Virus record (IMG/VR): IMGVR_UViG_3300044911_000835
Span: 13,049 to 77,048 of that record
Source of the DNA: a virus
Strand: one strand, 5' to 3'
DNA length: 64,000 nt
This document shows positions 1,024 through 13,128 of this stretch, in pieces. The notes under the pieces were generated by a model. The model was given only the letters and a program-made list of their open reading frames with translations, had not been told where the DNA came from and searched no databases. The first letter of the stretch is position 1, and every line of letters begins with the position of its first letter. The translations under genes were made by a program, and so were the position numbers.

Positions 1024-1599
1024 GTGTATAGAGAAATAAAAGAAGAAGAATTGAAGTTAGATAAACAGAGAGGTTATTTATACTTCATTGATAAAGATCA
1101 CCCTCTTAAAACTGGAAATGCCTCCTACGTTTTTCTACATAGGCACATGGCCTCTATAAAAGCAGGCTACTGGCTATCTAGTAAGGAGCATGTTCACCAT
1201 ATAGATGAGAATAAATTAAATAATTCTCCAGAAAATCTACACATATGTTCTGCTTCTGAACACGGTAAGTTACATAGTGCGCATTTATGTATAGAAAAAC
1301 TCTGTAAACAGTGTGGAATACTTTTTAAGCAAAAAGAGTCTACACAACTATTTTGTTCTACTGAGTGTAGTAGCAAGTATAGAGTTTTACTAGATGGATT
1401 AACTAAGGAAGAATTAGAACACTTATTATGGACTACTAATTATTCTGAACTAGGAAAACAATTTAAATGTAGTGATAATGGTATAAGAAAGTGGGCGAAA
1501 AGACTTAAATGTACAGTACCTCCTGCATACTTCCATAGTAAGGGCTACTCTGTAGAAAAGAAATTATCAATGTATTTAGAAATTAAAGAAAAAGGATAA
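1024..1599 (+). CDS. HNH homing endonuclease (N-terminal HNH, Zn ribbon, C-terminal HTH-like region)
   Basis: LHRH..HVHHIDENKLNN..NL..EH motif; CKQC...FCSTEC; GTG start with GAGG SD. Confidence 0.85.
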   Translation: MYREIKEEELKLDKQRGYLYFIDKDHPLKTGNASYVFLHRHMASIKAGYWLSSKEHVHHIDENKLNNSPENLHICSASEHGKLHSAHLCIEKLCKQCGILFKQKESTQLFCSTECSSKYRVLLDGLTKEELEHLLWTTNYSELGKQFKCSDNGIRKWAKRLKCTVPPAYFHSKGYSVEKKLSMYLEIKEKG

Positions 1600-2321: not shown

Positions 2322-2527
2322 AAGTAGGTACTTGGGTTCAGTTTGAGAATGAAAATAAACCTATAGGTTATATCATTGGTAAAAAAGAGCATAAGTATCA
2401 GCTTAGACCAACATCTAAAGAATTGATTAGAACTAACCTACATGAACTAGAGTTTGATGTAGATGGTTATGCTACTGAGTATGAACGCAAGAATAAGATC
2501 AATCGTATCATAGAATTTCAAGCTTGA
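2318..2527 (+). CDS. hypothetical protein
   Basis: overlaps the upstream stop (ORF track). Confidence 0.5.
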   Translation: MKVGTWVQFENENKPIGYIIGKKEHKYQLRPTSKELIRTNLHELEFDVDGYATEYERKNKINRIIEFQA

Positions 2528-2552
2528 TACGCAGTTCAATATTCTGTATAAT
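2524..2552 (+). promoter_or_regulatory. sigma70-type promoter ahead of the ncRNA block
   Basis: TTGATA-17-TATAAT. Confidence 0.75.
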
Positions 2553-2570
2553 ATTGTTTATGAAATCGAG

Positions 2571-2740
2571 AAAGGTTTCATAAAGCACACTAGAAGGGTA
2601 CTTAACCTACTAATCGACGGATTAGTAGCCTATGTGAGAGAACCCTTTAATAGGGTTAGGGTCACTATCAAACCGGCCGGCATGATACAAATAGGTGGTT
2701 AAACAGGTTCGATTCCTGTAGTGTGCTTTATGAGACTTTT
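2571..2740 (+). ncRNA. tRNA-like structured RNA (T-arm, long closing helix, multibranch domain)
   Basis: 22-bp closing helix 2571-2592/2719-2740; T-arm cagg-TTCGATT-cctg 2704-2718; several internal hairpins. Confidence 0.65.
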
Positions 2741-2774
2741 GCGTACTGCTCTATGATGCGGAGTACCAGTTGTC

Positions 2775-3370
2775 ACAATAGACCGGAGGTTTAGCGTGCT
2801 CAAGGTAATATCCCAACATACATTAGTATTACTAATGATTACGTGAAAGTTTTATATAACGTCCAGGCTAGGACGCTAAACCAAGCGGACTGTTTATAGA
2901 GGTCGTCCGTAAACTACTATACATCATTTTATCCTGATGTTAAACGGATAGGGTACATAGGCGTTGGAAGCGAAATGTACCTAATAAGGTAAGGAAAGTA
3001 AACGGAGGATGGGAGCTAGTGAAACGTACTGGAACCTTATAGCAGATACCCCACCGGCCTTAGAAATTGATAGTGAACTTAAGATAGCTATCGCCCTTTG
3101 TCAGAGTAGGTTAAAAACTGAAATCTTACTTAAATGAGGGCCAGTAAGTGATAGTTATTTTGCCCATAACTGGAACCTGGCTTAGGTAGAATGTCGCAAA
3201 TTCTACACTGTAGGAAGTTCGTAATGAAAGTTGTTAGTACCAAGAACTATAAATATCGTTGAACTATCAGTCTTATAGTACTAGTAGACTTAAAACAACT
3301 AGGAAATTGGCTTCCCGAGTATGATAGTAAACTGCTCCGACCTTACTAGAAGTCGTTAAACTAGTACCCA
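2775..3370 (+). ncRNA. large (~600 nt) highly structured ncRNA; boundaries approximate
   Basis: no ORF >=60 aa in 2528-3561; about ten helices identifiable by eye. Confidence 0.6.
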
Positions 3371-3378
3371 GTATTCTA

Positions 3379-3460
3379 GAGTGCTGTGGTTAGGGCAGTT
3401 AGGTAACTAACAGGTTAAGACTCCGGTGTGCCCGGACGAGCTGCTCTAACCACAACGCTC
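3379..3460 (+). ncRNA. small three-way-junction RNA E
   Basis: 16-bp helix 3385-3400/3439-3454 enclosing ttag-GTAA-ctaa and tccgg-tgtgc-ccgga. Confidence 0.5.
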
Positions 3461-3469
3461 CCGTATATC

Positions 3470-3536
3470 AATTGGTATTGATGCTTTCTGATTCCACTAT
3501 ATGGATAATGTCTTTGACAAGTTAGTATCAATTCCA
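3470..3536 (+). ncRNA. small stem-closed RNA F ending in CCA
   Basis: aattggtattga 3470-3481/ttagtatcaatt 3522-3533, then CCA. Confidence 0.35.
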
Positions 3537-3561
3537 CAACATTCTAATAAAAGGATTTAAT

Positions 3562-3759
3562 ATGCGTAAAAAACTATTAAGGTCTTGTGGATGTAGAACT
3601 TGTATGCGGGGCAGGCGTACCGCATATGGCCATGTAAGGTTACATCAAGCGGAAAAGCAGCTAAGACAACAATCTAGAATTAATATTGATAAAGCTATAA
3701 AAGGTAATGACCTAGATTTAATTGACATTATCGAAGTTTCTACGGATTACACAGACTAA
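3562..3759 (+). CDS. small basic protein with CxCxxC
   Basis: AAGGA SD; Arg/Lys-rich. Confidence 0.6.
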   Translation: MRKKLLRSCGCRTCMRGRRTAYGHVRLHQAEKQLRQQSRINIDKAIKGNDLDLIDIIEVSTDYTD

Positions 3760-4367
3760 TGCAAATTATTTCACCTTTTAAAGATTACTATGATGTAGGT
3801 ATGCAATATGGTTTCGACCCCAAATTGCAATGGATTAGGCGTACTTCTGACATTGAGGAGTCTAGTCGCTGGCATCATTCTGAATCAATTATTCTACATT
3901 TTTGTGGTAAGACTTATAGAGGTATAGTTGTAAAGTCCGCTTCCTACTACATTAATAGTATGGAAGTAATTTGGGATAATGAACACTACGATAAATATTG
4001 TACAGAAAATAAGGTAAAACCCTTAGAGATTAGTTGGCTAGATAAGTTTTGGATAACTACTAAAGTTAGACCTAAATCCAAGATCATACAGTTAGGACTA
4101 ATTGGTGAGTCTGACATTTTAAATGATAAATATAGTTCTCCGGTAATTTTACAAACTAATAAAGGACTAGAGATTAATCCTTCCTTGAAGTTTATTCAGT
4201 TTTATAAAGTCTATGACCCAGTAACTACATATCAAAAAATTAGTGAATACTTTGGTAACAAGTTTTTTAATGAACCTAAAATGGTTCCAATTTCAGATAA
4301 AGATAGGATTAAACAACATGGATTTACTAAAGAAAGTTTCCGTATGGCTAAGTCCAGCAATAAATAG
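3759..4367 (+). CDS. hypothetical phage protein
   Basis: TAATG coupling; IISxFKDYYD N-terminus. Confidence 0.65.
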   Translation: MQIISPFKDYYDVGMQYGFDPKLQWIRRTSDIEESSRWHHSESIILHFCGKTYRGIVVKSASYYINSMEVIWDNEHYDKYCTENKVKPLEISWLDKFWITTKVRPKSKIIQLGLIGESDILNDKYSSPVILQTNKGLEINPSLKFIQFYKVYDPVTTYQKISEYFGNKFFNEPKMVPISDKDRIKQHGFTKESFRMAKSSNK

Positions 4368-5209: not shown

Positions 5210-5286
5210 CGGCCGTTAGTTTAACTGGAAAGAACCTATGCATACGAAGCATAGAAATGTACGTTCGAATCGTACACGGTCGGCCA
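5210..5286 (+). tRNA. tRNA-Arg(ACG)
   Basis: tatgc-atACGaa-gcata; acceptor cggccgt/acggtcg; GCCA. Confidence 0.92.
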
Positions 5287-5290
5287 ATTA

Positions 5291-5355
5291 AGGCGAAAAG
5301 AGTCATTCTCCTGTTCCTTCCTCGGAACTAGCCTAAGTTTTAGCCCTTGAGGAGG
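5291..5355 (+). promoter_or_regulatory. structured RNA leader of HNH gene, copy 2
   Basis: aggc/gcct; gag/ctc; gttcc/ggaac with loop ttcctc complementary to SD gaggag. Confidence 0.65.
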
Positions 5356-5363
5356 GGTGTATT

Positions 5364-6047
5364 ATGAATGAAGAAATAATAGAAGAAATATATAATAAAT
5401 TAGTTGAACGATTTGGTATTGGTGACGTGTTTTTACCTAAGTATGGAAAAAGAAAATCAGACTTAACCTGGAAACAGTTCATTAAAGCTGCTTTAGAACT
5501 AAAGTTAGAGGAACTCACTATTTATTGTGGATTTACGTTTAGTAAAGGCCTAAGTAGAGCTTTAAAAGAAAAATATCCTGGTATTATACAAGATAAAAAT
5601 GGAGAATACTGGTTTCTATACCTATCTAAGTTTCTTAGTAAGAAAAGATGCTCACAATGTCTAGAAGTATTAGAATATAAAGAATTTAACTATAATTCAT
5701 CAACAAAAGATGGATTTAGTTCTACTTGTAGACATTGCGACAAAGAATACAGAGACCTAAATAAAGAGCATATATTAGCACATAGTAAACAATATTACAG
5801 TAAGCATAAAAAAGAAATTAGTGCTAATAAAGCTAAACGTAGGGCTACAAAACTACAAGCAACCCCAAATTGGGCAAACCTGATAGCCATAAAAGAAATT
5901 TATCGAACTTGCCCTGAAGGTTATCATGTAGATCACATAGTTCCCTTACAAAACGACTTAGTATGTGGGCTTCATTGTGAATTTAATCTTCAACATCTAT
6001 CTGCTAGCGAAAATTTAAGTAAAGGAAATAGATTTGAAGTAGATTAA
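5364..6047 (+). CDS. HNH homing endonuclease (C-terminal HNH)
   Basis: CSQC..CRHC Zn ribbon; YHVDHIVPL..VCGLH..NLQ..ENLSKGN. Confidence 0.88.
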   Translation: MNEEIIEEIYNKLVERFGIGDVFLPKYGKRKSDLTWKQFIKAALELKLEELTIYCGFTFSKGLSRALKEKYPGIIQDKNGEYWFLYLSKFLSKKRCSQCLEVLEYKEFNYNSSTKDGFSSTCRHCDKEYRDLNKEHILAHSKQYYSKHKKEISANKAKRRATKLQATPNWANLIAIKEIYRTCPEGYHVDHIVPLQNDLVCGLHCEFNLQHLSASENLSKGNRFEVD

Positions 6048-6081
6048 GACCAAATTAAAGCAAGATTGAATAAATTCAATC

Positions 6082-6110
6082 TTGCTTTTTTGCGCTATGG
6101 CGGGTATAAT
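6082..6110 (+). promoter_or_regulatory. sigma70-type promoter
   Basis: TTGCTT-17-TATAAT. Confidence 0.75.
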
Positions 6111-6138
6111 ATTATTTCTGACTTGGAAAGGAATAAAA

Positions 6139-6324
6139 ATGAAACAAATTAAGGTAGATATTATTGAGAGCGAACGTGGTTGGGGCTCCAAGATTGAGGA
6201 TACAAAAGTGTTCACTACGTTAGCTGAGGCCGAGAAATTCGTTAAGGAATTTAACGCGGATAATAATTTAGATTACGTACCAGATTGGTATATGTATGCT
6301 ACTGAACCTTATATCGGCAATTGA
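6139..6324 (+). CDS. hypothetical protein (start revised to MKQIKV)
   Basis: AAGGA SD; the upstream in-frame TTG is the promoter -35. Confidence 0.65.
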   Translation: MKQIKVDIIESERGWGSKIEDTKVFTTLAEAEKFVKEFNADNNLDYVPDWYMYATEPYIGN

Positions 6325-6432
6325 ATATGTAATAGATACAGGTATGTATTGGAGAGTACCTATGTTTTTATACGGTACATTTCTAATAGGTTATGGAACT
6401 TTCTACCTGTATAAACTAATAAGGATGTAAAT

Positions 6433-7023
6433 ATGGCAAGAGTTAACATGGCAAATAGTAAGAGCGTCTTCTTTACATCAGACACACACTTTGGCCACAA
6501 GAATATTATCAAATACTGTGATCGTCCATTTTCTTCTACAGAAGAAATGCAAGAAGCTATTGTAGCTAAGTGGAATGAAACAGTAAAGGATACCGATACG
6601 GTTTTCCATCTAGGAGACTTTAGTTTTCTAGACAAAGAAAAGACGCGTTGGATTCTATCACGTCTTAATGGCAATATTGTCCTAGTTCGTGGAAATCACG
6701 ATGCTAGCAAGCATGTAGAGCTATTCGGTGATGTATACGATATGGTTGAACTTCATGTGGAAGACAATGGTACGCAGCAAATCATTATACTATGTCACTA
6801 CCCACTAGCAGTATGGGCTAGTTCTCACTATGGAACGTGGCACTTGCATGGTCATAGTCATGGTACTTATAAAGTTAAAACTGGTAAGATTGTTGATGCT
6901 GGCTGGGACGTTTGGGGTAAGCCCGTTTCATATCAGGAAGTTAAAGACTACATGGCTAAGCGTTCTCTAAGTTCAGTAGATCATCATAGTATCTCTGAAT
7001 ATAGGAATAATGCTGGTAGCTAG
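6433..7023 (+). CDS. calcineurin-like metallophosphoesterase
   Basis: SDTHFGH, HLGDF, GNHD, CHYP, LHGHSH motifs. Confidence 0.9.
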   Translation: MARVNMANSKSVFFTSDTHFGHKNIIKYCDRPFSSTEEMQEAIVAKWNETVKDTDTVFHLGDFSFLDKEKTRWILSRLNGNIVLVRGNHDASKHVELFGDVYDMVELHVEDNGTQQIIILCHYPLAVWASSHYGTWHLHGHSHGTYKVKTGKIVDAGWDVWGKPVSYQEVKDYMAKRSLSSVDHHSISEYRNNAGS

Positions 7024-7390
7024 TATGGTCGCCTGTCTAGCTCTAAATATTTATCATGAAGCTAGAGGCGAAAATATTAAAGGAATGCAAGCAGTCGCTC
7101 TCGTTACTAGAAACAGAATGGCAGTTACTGGAGATAATGCATGTGAGGTAGTACACAGTCCTAAGCAGTTTTCCTGGACGATATATAAGCCAAAGGCAAC
7201 CGACCCCAAATCGTATAAATTGGCTGAAAAGATTGCAATTGATGTTCTAACCGGCAAAGTATCAGACTTTACAGGTGGAGCTACTTTCTATCATCATATA
7301 GATGTTAGGCCACACTGGGCCAAAAAGTTTATTTATAGAAAAACTATAGGTAAACATAGATTTTATTTTACACTAGAGAGACCTTTATGA
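7010..7390 (+). CDS. SleB-like cell wall hydrolase (Hydrolase_2)
   Basis: CLALNIYHEARGE, QFSW, GATFYH, IGKHRFY. Confidence 0.9.
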   Translation: MLVASMVACLALNIYHEARGENIKGMQAVALVTRNRMAVTGDNACEVVHSPKQFSWTIYKPKATDPKSYKLAEKIAIDVLTGKVSDFTGGATFYHHIDVRPHWAKKFIYRKTIGKHRFYFTLERPL

Positions 7391-12828: not shown

Positions 12829-13128
12829 ATGAAGGTAACAATAACTTATTATGACAACGACTCTCTCACGATTGAAGAAGTTGTTGCCCGCGCCAAACAC
12901 GCATACGGAGATTTTGTTGAAGTTTCCGTGCAACCAACAAGCAATAAGCCTTCAGATATGCTTTACTTTGCTTTGCAACAAATGTTAACTCACGAACAGC
13001 TATCAATATTTTTTGATGACAAGAATCAGTATCCTGCTAGACTAGGTAAGTTGCGTTCTGAAACATTAGCAGCAGTACAAAAGGAATTATCAGCAGTAAT
13101 TAAGGATAATGAAATAAAGGTAACTTAG
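12829..13128 (+). CDS. hypothetical protein
   Basis: GGAG SD. Confidence 0.6.
   Translation: MKVTITYYDNDSLTIEEVVARAKHAYGDFVEVSVQPTSNKPSDMLYFALQQMLTHEQLSIFFDDKNQYPARLGKLRSETLAAVQKELSAVIKDNEIKVT

Follow-up and report, generated by a model that had tools for sequence, protein, structure and literature searches.

What occupies the gap between positions 2528 and 3561 in the tRNA island of a lake phage? The window analysed here is a stretch of 64,000 nucleotides that corresponds to bases 13049-77048 of a viral contig from IMG/VR (77 kb, about 73% complete), and near-identical DNA is found in lake-water metagenomes of many studies. A sequence-only reading of this DNA had placed a large multi-helix non-coding RNA at 2775-3370, and had taken it for a divergent ROOL/GOLLD-class RNA or for a member of a new class of large non-coding RNA, the phage being T5-like. 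The gene content agrees with the assignment to T5-like phages: the phage encodes a PolA-type DNA polymerase, a DnaB helicase, an SbcC-like nuclease, a ribonucleotide reductase and a protein of the T5-type major tail protein family, and has a large tRNA island. An RNase H-like protein, HNH endonucleases and a metallophosphoesterase are encoded as well. The tRNA island also holds a permuted (two-piece) tmRNA (RF04321, 78 bits, contig 12880-13112, corresponding to window -168 to 64), and free-standing HNH endonuclease genes lie directly 3′ of tRNA genes at window 1024-1599 and 5364-6047, the former being the one checked against Pfam. Elsewhere in the contig, at a locus just after tRNA-Ala, a 506-aa ORF (contig 5547-7067, in L026) is a Ro60/TROVE gene, directly preceded by a sub-threshold YrlA-like match (contig 5238-5347, 35 bits, E = 1.8e-7).

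A non-coding gap behind a repeated promoter

The earlier claim that neither strand of 2528-3561 contains an ORF of at least 60 aa is borne out, the longest ones being 42 and 40 aa, and the consensus promoter seen at 2524-2552 (TTGATA-17-TATAAT) indeed matches 11 of 12 sigma-70 positions. One natural haplotype has +1, -1 and -1 indels within the 42-aa ORF (3009-3137), and in a relative, L027, the end of this ORF is deleted; because natural variants put frameshifting indels into the sole 42-aa ORF, the region does not code for protein. The promoter belongs to a repeat with at least six copies in the phage, in which CTTGNT, 17 nt and TATAAT are followed by the leader TTTCTGAAATCGAAAAAGGA. Other copies continue into the ATG of an ORF; the copy before the RNA region reads ATA at that point. 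No intrinsic terminator was found between the promoter and the ORF that begins at 3562.

2524-2552, + strand: sigma-70-type promoter, member of a family of repeated phage promoters with a conserved leader
Window 2510-2600 and 2042-2182: promoter/leader copies
L026 1585-1725, 2818-2958, 3596-3736, 7755-7895 and 11460-11600: promoter/leader copies

An abundant RNA of about 620 nt

Expression was assessed by comparing the window with contigs, rather than reads, from one DNA run and three RNA runs, with a small share of words in the sediment RNA runs X19 and X20 set aside. Two of the RNA runs, X17 and X18, are small total-RNA metatranscriptomes of lakes and come from a single study; their contigs, nearly identical to the window, span 2744-3184 at a depth of 76-186 (X17) and 2837-3364 at a depth of 114-373 (X18). 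In the flanks, the same runs have a depth of 0 over the coding sequence 2371-2712 and over 3397-3900, and of 10.6 over 2200-2329, a lack of contig cover over any one part counting as weak evidence. By contig depth, RNA over 2744-3364 is at least 15-35 times as abundant as the neighbouring mRNA, and the signal comes from RNA because DNA contamination would also cover the flanks. The extent proposed earlier, 2775-3370, is thus close to the outer contig ends at 2744 and 3364 but not identical with them.

2744-3364, + strand as judged from the promoter and the orientation of the motif described below: abundant RNA of about 620 nt, from X17 and X18 contigs

Two of the contigs, 2744-3013 (270 nt) and 3066-3364 (298 nt), each take in more than one predicted hairpin module and pass over the boundaries at even depth. 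Since RNA contigs bridge several modules, abundant molecules longer than single modules must exist, although contigs of this kind do not tell where the RNA starts and stops, which strand it comes from, or whether one molecule or several are present. The breaks at 2984-3013 and 3066-3095 reflect a two-haplotype bubble and not a fall in cover. RNA cover starts 4 nt past a 21-bp helix (2571-2591/2720-2740) and ends 15 nt before a hairpin at 3379-3459, which suggests processing at these flanking helices. In a third, rRNA-depleted RNA run (X5), one 2.1-kb contig extends from 2870 into the downstream genes.

A conserved motif of about 80 nt

The main feature of the locus had escaped the earlier reading: within the non-coding RNA that it rightly recognised, positions 2985-3062 are conserved beyond the lineage. 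BLAST against 50,697 GenBank phage records returned one match, of 73 nt, in an unannotated gap after a tRNA-Leu gene of Ralstonia phage RSP15. The exact 20-mer GGAAAGTAAACGGAGGATGG occurs in 22 IMG/VR contigs, and a looser pattern together with a covariance model built here (R1) gave 45 matches in IMG/VR phages, 41 of them distinct, at 22-88 bits. The upstream 13 kb of the contig contain no copy of the motif. Among the GenBank phage records, the only cultured phages that carry it are RSP15 and Vibrio phage 1.121.O. When 185,579 prokaryote species, one genome each, were scanned with the G-type 20-mer, which would miss A- and C-type copies, a single match was obtained, on a 2.7-kb MAG contig.

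2985-3062, + strand: conserved phage motif, single copy in the window, 73 bits with model R1
2985-2989/3058-3062, + strand: P1
2990-3002, + strand: invariant strand UAAGGAAAGUAAA
3003-3008/3051-3056, + strand: P2, CGGAGG/CCACCG with an A-A mismatch, plus GG/CC at 3011-3012/3049-3050
3015-3043, + strand: P3, variable hairpin, followed by GAUAC at 3045-3049

In the consensus, a P1 of 5-8 bp and highly variable sequence leads into an invariant A-rich strand, (U/A/C)AAGGAAAGUAAA, and then into P2, CGGAGN/N′CACCG with a conserved A-A mismatch, followed by an AU bulge and GG/CC. P3 is a variable hairpin of 12-50 nt with a few recurring subtypes, after which come RGAUAC and the 3′ strands of P2 and P1. 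P1 encloses P2 and P2 encloses P3, so that the fold is fully nested, and it is supported by covariation; no conserved sequence was found 5′ of P1. Covariation in homologues, which had been suggested as a check on the whole RNA, is clear in P1 and P2 of the motif. In the motif alignment, seven pairs of P1 have double changes, and the N-N′ pair of P2 (columns 30-140) is AU in 19 sequences, GC in 16, CG in four and GU in one, and is never unpaired. Overall, 92% of cells are paired, as against 29-49% when the partners are slid by 1-3 columns, and the observed score was reached by none of 500 shuffles. The P2 register given by RNAalifold (GG-A-UGGG/CCCACC), which left 23 of 40 sequences unpaired at one position, was rejected in favour of CGGAGN/N′CACCG.

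A second, divergent copy of the motif was seen in one phage (L008 2692-2789, - strand), where AAAGUAAACGGAG and CACCGG are kept and the inner helix is CUAC/GUAG; this copy lends support to the P2 register, and it hints that the family is wider. Two possible likenesses, of GUAAACGGAGG to the 16S rRNA 530 loop and of GGAAAGU to RNase P CR-I, were dropped, the match lengths being at chance level by a rough estimate.

The P3 region (3013-3065) is hypervariable in co-occurring lake strains, where, within 50 nt, one haplotype departs from the window by 5 substitutions and another by 10 substitutions and 3 indels, with motif core and flanks nearly identical. This variability suggests diversifying selection or recombination.

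The motif lies beside tRNA genes in about 20 of 42 distinct loci, always on the same strand as the tRNAs. The fit is often tight, as in L004, L041, L075 and L090, in which tRNA-Leu is followed after 0 nt by the aligned motif and, 4 nt further, by tRNA-Asp. These four are the nearest relatives in hand, because they have Ro60 in common with the window phage and three of them (L004, L075 and L090) also have the RNase H-like gene. At other loci the motif occupies short intergenic gaps before unrelated genes, in several phages 15-35 nt upstream of an ORF. It stands in a gene-free gap of more than 1 kb in three phages, namely the window phage, L037 and Vibrio phage 1.121.O, and no flank sequence common to these three was found. 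The gap of L037 is 1.35 kb long and ORF-free, with a DUF2828 gene just upstream; the gene (L037 1757-3295, - strand) encodes a 512-aa protein with DUF2828 and DUF7788, which we take to be Ro-like. In Vibrio phage 1.121.O the motif (61 bits) lies in an unannotated, ORF-poor gap of 1.38 kb (L100 2152-3531; MG592495.1 140231-141610) that ends in a clear intrinsic terminator (L100 ~3392-3420), and in this cultured phage the gap is likely to give a long non-coding transcript. In RSP15, a DUF2828 gene lies ~3 kb from the motif.

Of the 42 motif-bearing records, 12 contain a TROVE or DUF2828 gene; among the nine that are complete or near-complete (>=90%), five do. A partnership of the motif with Ro60 was nonetheless not adopted: the co-occurrence is real but loose, and in jumbo phages the Ro-like genes can be 45-60 kb from the motif. 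We read the association as joint membership of RNA-metabolism islands, not as partnership.

Peripheral elements and their variation

Around the motif, the locus is made up of elements that differ in how well they are kept among close relatives.

2571-2740, + strand: tRNA-shaped element with a perfect 21-bp closing helix, 2571-2591/2720-2740 (21 of 21 pairs); z -5.05 to -7.6
2744-2858, + strand: variable 5′ domain, holding the 5′ strand of a 10-bp helix, 2788-2797/2873-2882
2930-2950, + strand: hairpin UAUCC/GGAUA, with compensatory C2934U + G2946A (C-G to U-A)
3064-3121, + strand: block conserved in L027 (3 of 58 positions differ), containing the palindrome GATAGCTATC
3122-3267, + strand: optional segment of 146 nt, missing from L027, including hairpin 3186-3192/3200-3206
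3268-3364, + strand: 3′ block, ~85% identical to L027, with three hairpins
3269-3273/3286-3290, + strand: hairpin of the 3′ block, compensatory C3272-G3287 to G-C
3298-3299 and 3302-3305 with 3312-3315 and 3319-3320, + strand: hairpin of the 3′ block, compensatory A3298-U3320 to G-C
3344-3349/3361-3366, + strand: hairpin of the 3′ block
3379-3459, + strand: long branched hairpin past the 3′ end of the RNA, z -4.45 to -5.2, no U tract

In the element at 2571-2740, a 7-bp acceptor-like stem is lengthened into the 21-bp helix. A canonical T arm (2703-2719, ACAGG UUCGAUU CCUGU) and a ~90-nt insert are present, a hairpin of 7 bp and 4 nt takes the place of the anticodon arm, and there is no CCA. 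ARAGORN and Rfam do not call the element as tRNA or tmRNA, nor do ARAGORN and Infernal call any tRNA (RF00005) or tmRNA within 2528-3561. A comparable anticodon-less, tRNA-shaped element is seen in L037 at ~1575-1690 on the - strand, ~270 nt upstream of the motif.

In some co-occurring lake strains, 53 other letters stand in place of 2740-2858 (119 nt). L027 is 82% identical over an alignment extending from 3263 through to the downstream genes, 93-96% over 3039-3121 and ~85% over 3268-3377, figures that rest, for the flanks, on this one partial relative together with population variants. Four compensatory double changes preserve hairpins (2934/2946, 3016/3042, 3272/3287 and 3298/3320); C3016U + G3042A falls within P3 of the motif and the other three fall outside the motif, and it should be borne in mind that a two-sequence consensus fold chooses compatible pairs by construction. 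Another variant, T3202C, breaks one predicted pair. Over 2870-3900, the X5/X16 haplotype has 11 differences, every one of them within 2870-3364 and none in the downstream genes. The hairpin at 3379-3459, which the X17 and X18 RNA contigs do not cover and of which L027 keeps only the first 10 nt, may be a processing site. As a matter of speculation, the perfect 10-nt palindrome GATAGCTATC (3084-3093) could pair between two RNA molecules.

Beyond the lineage, about 90 loci compared with the flanks by BLAST had nothing in common with them outside the motif, two 18-19-nt patterns from the 3′ half matched no other IMG/VR contig, and a search of the flanks for remnants of tRNA-Leu or tRNA-Asp gave no match to the tRNA model. 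As far as sequence comparison goes, the 600-nt entity is lineage-specific, because in the nearest relatives fetched the motif stands alone between tRNA-Leu and tRNA-Asp, and conservation beyond the lineage is limited to 2985-3062. With 119 nt swapped and 146 nt optional, most of the 620 nt may be dispensable.

Folding energy and the proposed helices

All ten helices proposed from the sequence are fully complementary, and the CCA at 3368-3370 is present; conservation fails for several of them, which have a strand in the segment missing from L027 or compete with P1. That 146-nt optional segment contains the 3′ strand of 3081-3094/3148-3161, the 3′ strand of 2863-2867/3176-3180 and the 5′ strand of 3229-3235/3294-3300, and these helices therefore cannot be core features. 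Helix 2984-2990/3034-3040 competes with the conserved P1 (2985-2989/3058-3062) and is broken by a natural variant. The region does not fold better than shuffled or coding controls: the minimum free energy gives z = -1.56 (+ strand) and -0.6 (- strand) for 2775-3370, and -1.2 and -0.2 for 2744-3364, within the range of eight coding controls of equal length (-5.3 to +0.3). Some sub-elements do stand out, in fold windows picked after inspection: 2553-2745 (z -5 to -7.6), 3078-3165 (z -3.65) and 3379-3460 (z -5.2). Several modules with closing helices of their own have z of -2.7 to -3.7.

Searches against known RNA families

A cmscan of window 2500-3600 against all 4227 Rfam families at E<=10 gave two chance-level matches only, to a CRISPR repeat and a plastid UTR. 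GOLLD, ROOL, RNase P RNA and group I and II introns, the families that had been named for this search, had no match in the region at that threshold, and neither had 6S, OLE or HEARO. Permissive thresholds applied to 12 kb around the region, the upstream 13 kb and nine other motif loci likewise gave no relevant match for the RNA or the motif. The GOLLD model (RF02032) matched neither the whole 77-kb contig nor 2500-3600, and the ROOL model (RF03087, ~570 positions) had no match in the contig, both at E<=10, the ROOL control genomes likewise giving none. Of the two alternatives first offered for the RNA, the new non-coding RNA is supported by the RNA contigs and the non-coding nature of the region, and the ROOL/GOLLD assignment is left unsupported by the lack of a model match at E<=10.

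The YrlA model (RF02553) finds its best match at the position upstream of Ro60 given above and none in the window region, and the Ro60 site GNCGAA(N)G (PMC4201824) was not seen in 2553-3561 on inspection by eye. The motif string was not found in the literature searched; a catalogue of ~10,000 viral structured-RNA candidates (PMC10690425) may contain it.

Discussion

The results support a real, expressed and new phage non-coding RNA of ~620 nt in the gap of the tRNA island, one that belongs to no described family and is not GOLLD or ROOL. This RNA is best read as a conserved, phage-restricted core joined to lineage-specific, modular and partly dispensable peripheral domains. The explanation that we prefer goes further and proposes a stable RNA of ~620 nt, cut from a longer precursor, with a functional core of ~80 nt that acts in trans; taken as a whole, we would give it an even chance of being correct. 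The promoter at 2524-2552 would drive a precursor containing 2744-3364, and this precursor would first fold the tRNA-shaped element clamped by the 21-bp helix. That helix and the hairpin at 3379-3459 are plausible processing sites on either side of the stable RNA, whose functional core would be the motif at 2985-3062. Many unrelated phages have the motif as a tRNA-sized unit of their tRNA arrays, from which tRNA processing enzymes would probably free it. The invariant core could bind a partner common to very different hosts, candidates being a conserved host factor of RNA metabolism or translation, or a small molecule, and the lineage-specific flank hairpins may add stability or extra binding sites. 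Since a core of 25-30 nt is invariant across phages of very different hosts and is delivered via tRNA arrays, the comparisons argue for a trans-acting RNA with a universal partner, be it a host factor or a small molecule, or for a catalytic RNA. A bolder form of this idea, which we consider doubtful, would make the motif a new, tRNA-sized class of functional RNA. The motif would be a ribozyme, or else it would capture a small molecule or a universal host factor as a high-affinity aptamer or decoy (a signalling-nucleotide sponge would be one example), with the 620-nt RNA as an elaborated, possibly self-assembling display scaffold. The idea is prompted by a core that is invariant across hosts next to a P3 that is hypervariable even in co-occurring strains.

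The main rival to the preferred explanation is a precursor that carries a co-transcribed string of separate, stem-closed small RNAs, cut apart like tRNA precursors, with only the motif RNA functionally conserved. The members of the string would include the tRNA-shaped element, domains of 95 nt (2788-2882) and ~80 nt (3081-3161), the ~80-nt motif and small hairpins. Most other phages do have the motif alone between tRNAs, in gaps barely bigger than the motif itself, and in the window phage several modules have closing helices of their own and whole modules are swapped or missing in relatives. The 270- and 298-nt RNA contigs, however, cross the module boundaries at even depth, and RNA-seq, which poorly recovers RNAs of less than 100 nt, reached depths of 76-373 here, so that we hold such a string to be possible without favouring it.

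A decaying spacer and a cis-acting leader are both less likely than that. The region could be mostly the remains of a former gene behind the repeated promoter, or of leftover insertions, with one functional motif, and its RNA could be seen owing to a strong promoter and structure; the ATA that stands where five or six paralogues of the promoter/leader have the ATG of an ORF would fit such decay, as would a fold energy at chance level, large indels in close relatives and the confinement of all X5/X16 differences to 2870-3364. It is nevertheless an unlikely account, considering that the blocks 3039-3121 and 3268-3377 are conserved in L027 as much as or more than the neighbouring genes, that three compensatory double substitutions outside the motif keep hairpins, and that RNA depth exceeds that of the flanking mRNA 15-35-fold. 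A long structured 5′ leader controlling the downstream genes in cis (3562-3759 and beyond), with the motif as sensor, would explain why there is no intrinsic terminator before ORF 3562, why the 2.1-kb X5 contig runs into the genes and why the motif is 15-35 nt upstream of an ORF in several phages. Yet downstream genes are unrelated between loci and the next feature is a tRNA in about half of them, the motif of the window phage is 500 nt from ORF 3562, and in the total-RNA libraries the RNA is abundant and the downstream genes have a depth of 0, all of which makes the leader rather improbable. A very divergent member of GOLLD or ROOL, finally, would share size class, phage origin, lake habitat and tRNA adjacency with this RNA, but cmscan of the 1.1-kb region found nothing relevant at E<=10 and the two models were without a match in the contig at that threshold, where the ROOL control genomes also gave none; we find this hardly credible.

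GOLLD, ROOL and the stable RNAs of T4 are among the large or conserved non-coding RNAs of phages that have long been a puzzle, to which the motif gives a tractable entry point. The motif has a short, sharply defined core supported by covariation, and so far nearly all of its occurrences are in phage sequences, those of two cultured phages among them; the RNA that contains it here is highly expressed in nature. The position of the motif within tRNA arrays suggests a non-tRNA effector RNA for whose delivery phages employ the tRNA processing pathway, and the partner of the motif, once found, could uncover a new means by which phages manipulate the RNA metabolism, translation or defence of their hosts.

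Comparison with known systems

A riboswitch was rejected for the motif, as the downstream features are tRNAs or unrelated ORFs and there is no conserved terminator or SD-sequestering partner. Theta ribozymes, which are minimal HDV-like ribozymes, are small conserved RNAs directly 3′ of phage tRNA genes, and the motif resembles them as a small conserved RNA adjoining phage tRNAs, with a possible link to the processing of tRNA arrays. In the HDV fold, a nested double pseudoknot, cleavage takes place at the 5′ end of P1, whereas the helices of the motif are fully nested; this topology, in which covariation backs a nested P1-P2-P3, speaks against an HDV-like or theta ribozyme, and no Rfam ribozyme model matched. 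The Y RNAs of bacteria and phages, YrlA among them, are likewise small and structured, have tRNA-like parts and are encoded in the neighbourhood of RNA-repair or tRNA genes, and the window phage encodes Ro60; the motif differs from YrlA in having no T arm, and four of the nine complete or near-complete motif phages are without a Ro-like gene.

The tRNA clusters of T-even phages and T5 contain stable non-tRNA RNAs, such as the ‘species 1 and 2’ of T4, which are co-transcribed and co-processed with the tRNAs and whose function has long been unsolved. The RNA described here is likewise a non-tRNA RNA found with phage tRNAs, its motif occurring, among the GenBank phages, only in RSP15 and 1.121.O. 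GOLLD was first seen in lake metagenomes and its model has a conserved 3′ half with pseudoknots, and both GOLLD and ROOL assemble into large homo-oligomeric cages. The two are large non-coding RNAs, often phage-encoded and located beside tRNA genes (see also bioRxiv 10.1101/2024.12.08.627333). Our RNA is like them in size class, in its origin from a lake phage and in its position in a tRNA island, and differs from them in having no conserved element in common with either and in its make-up, with only ~80 nt kept across phages and the remainder specific to its lineage.
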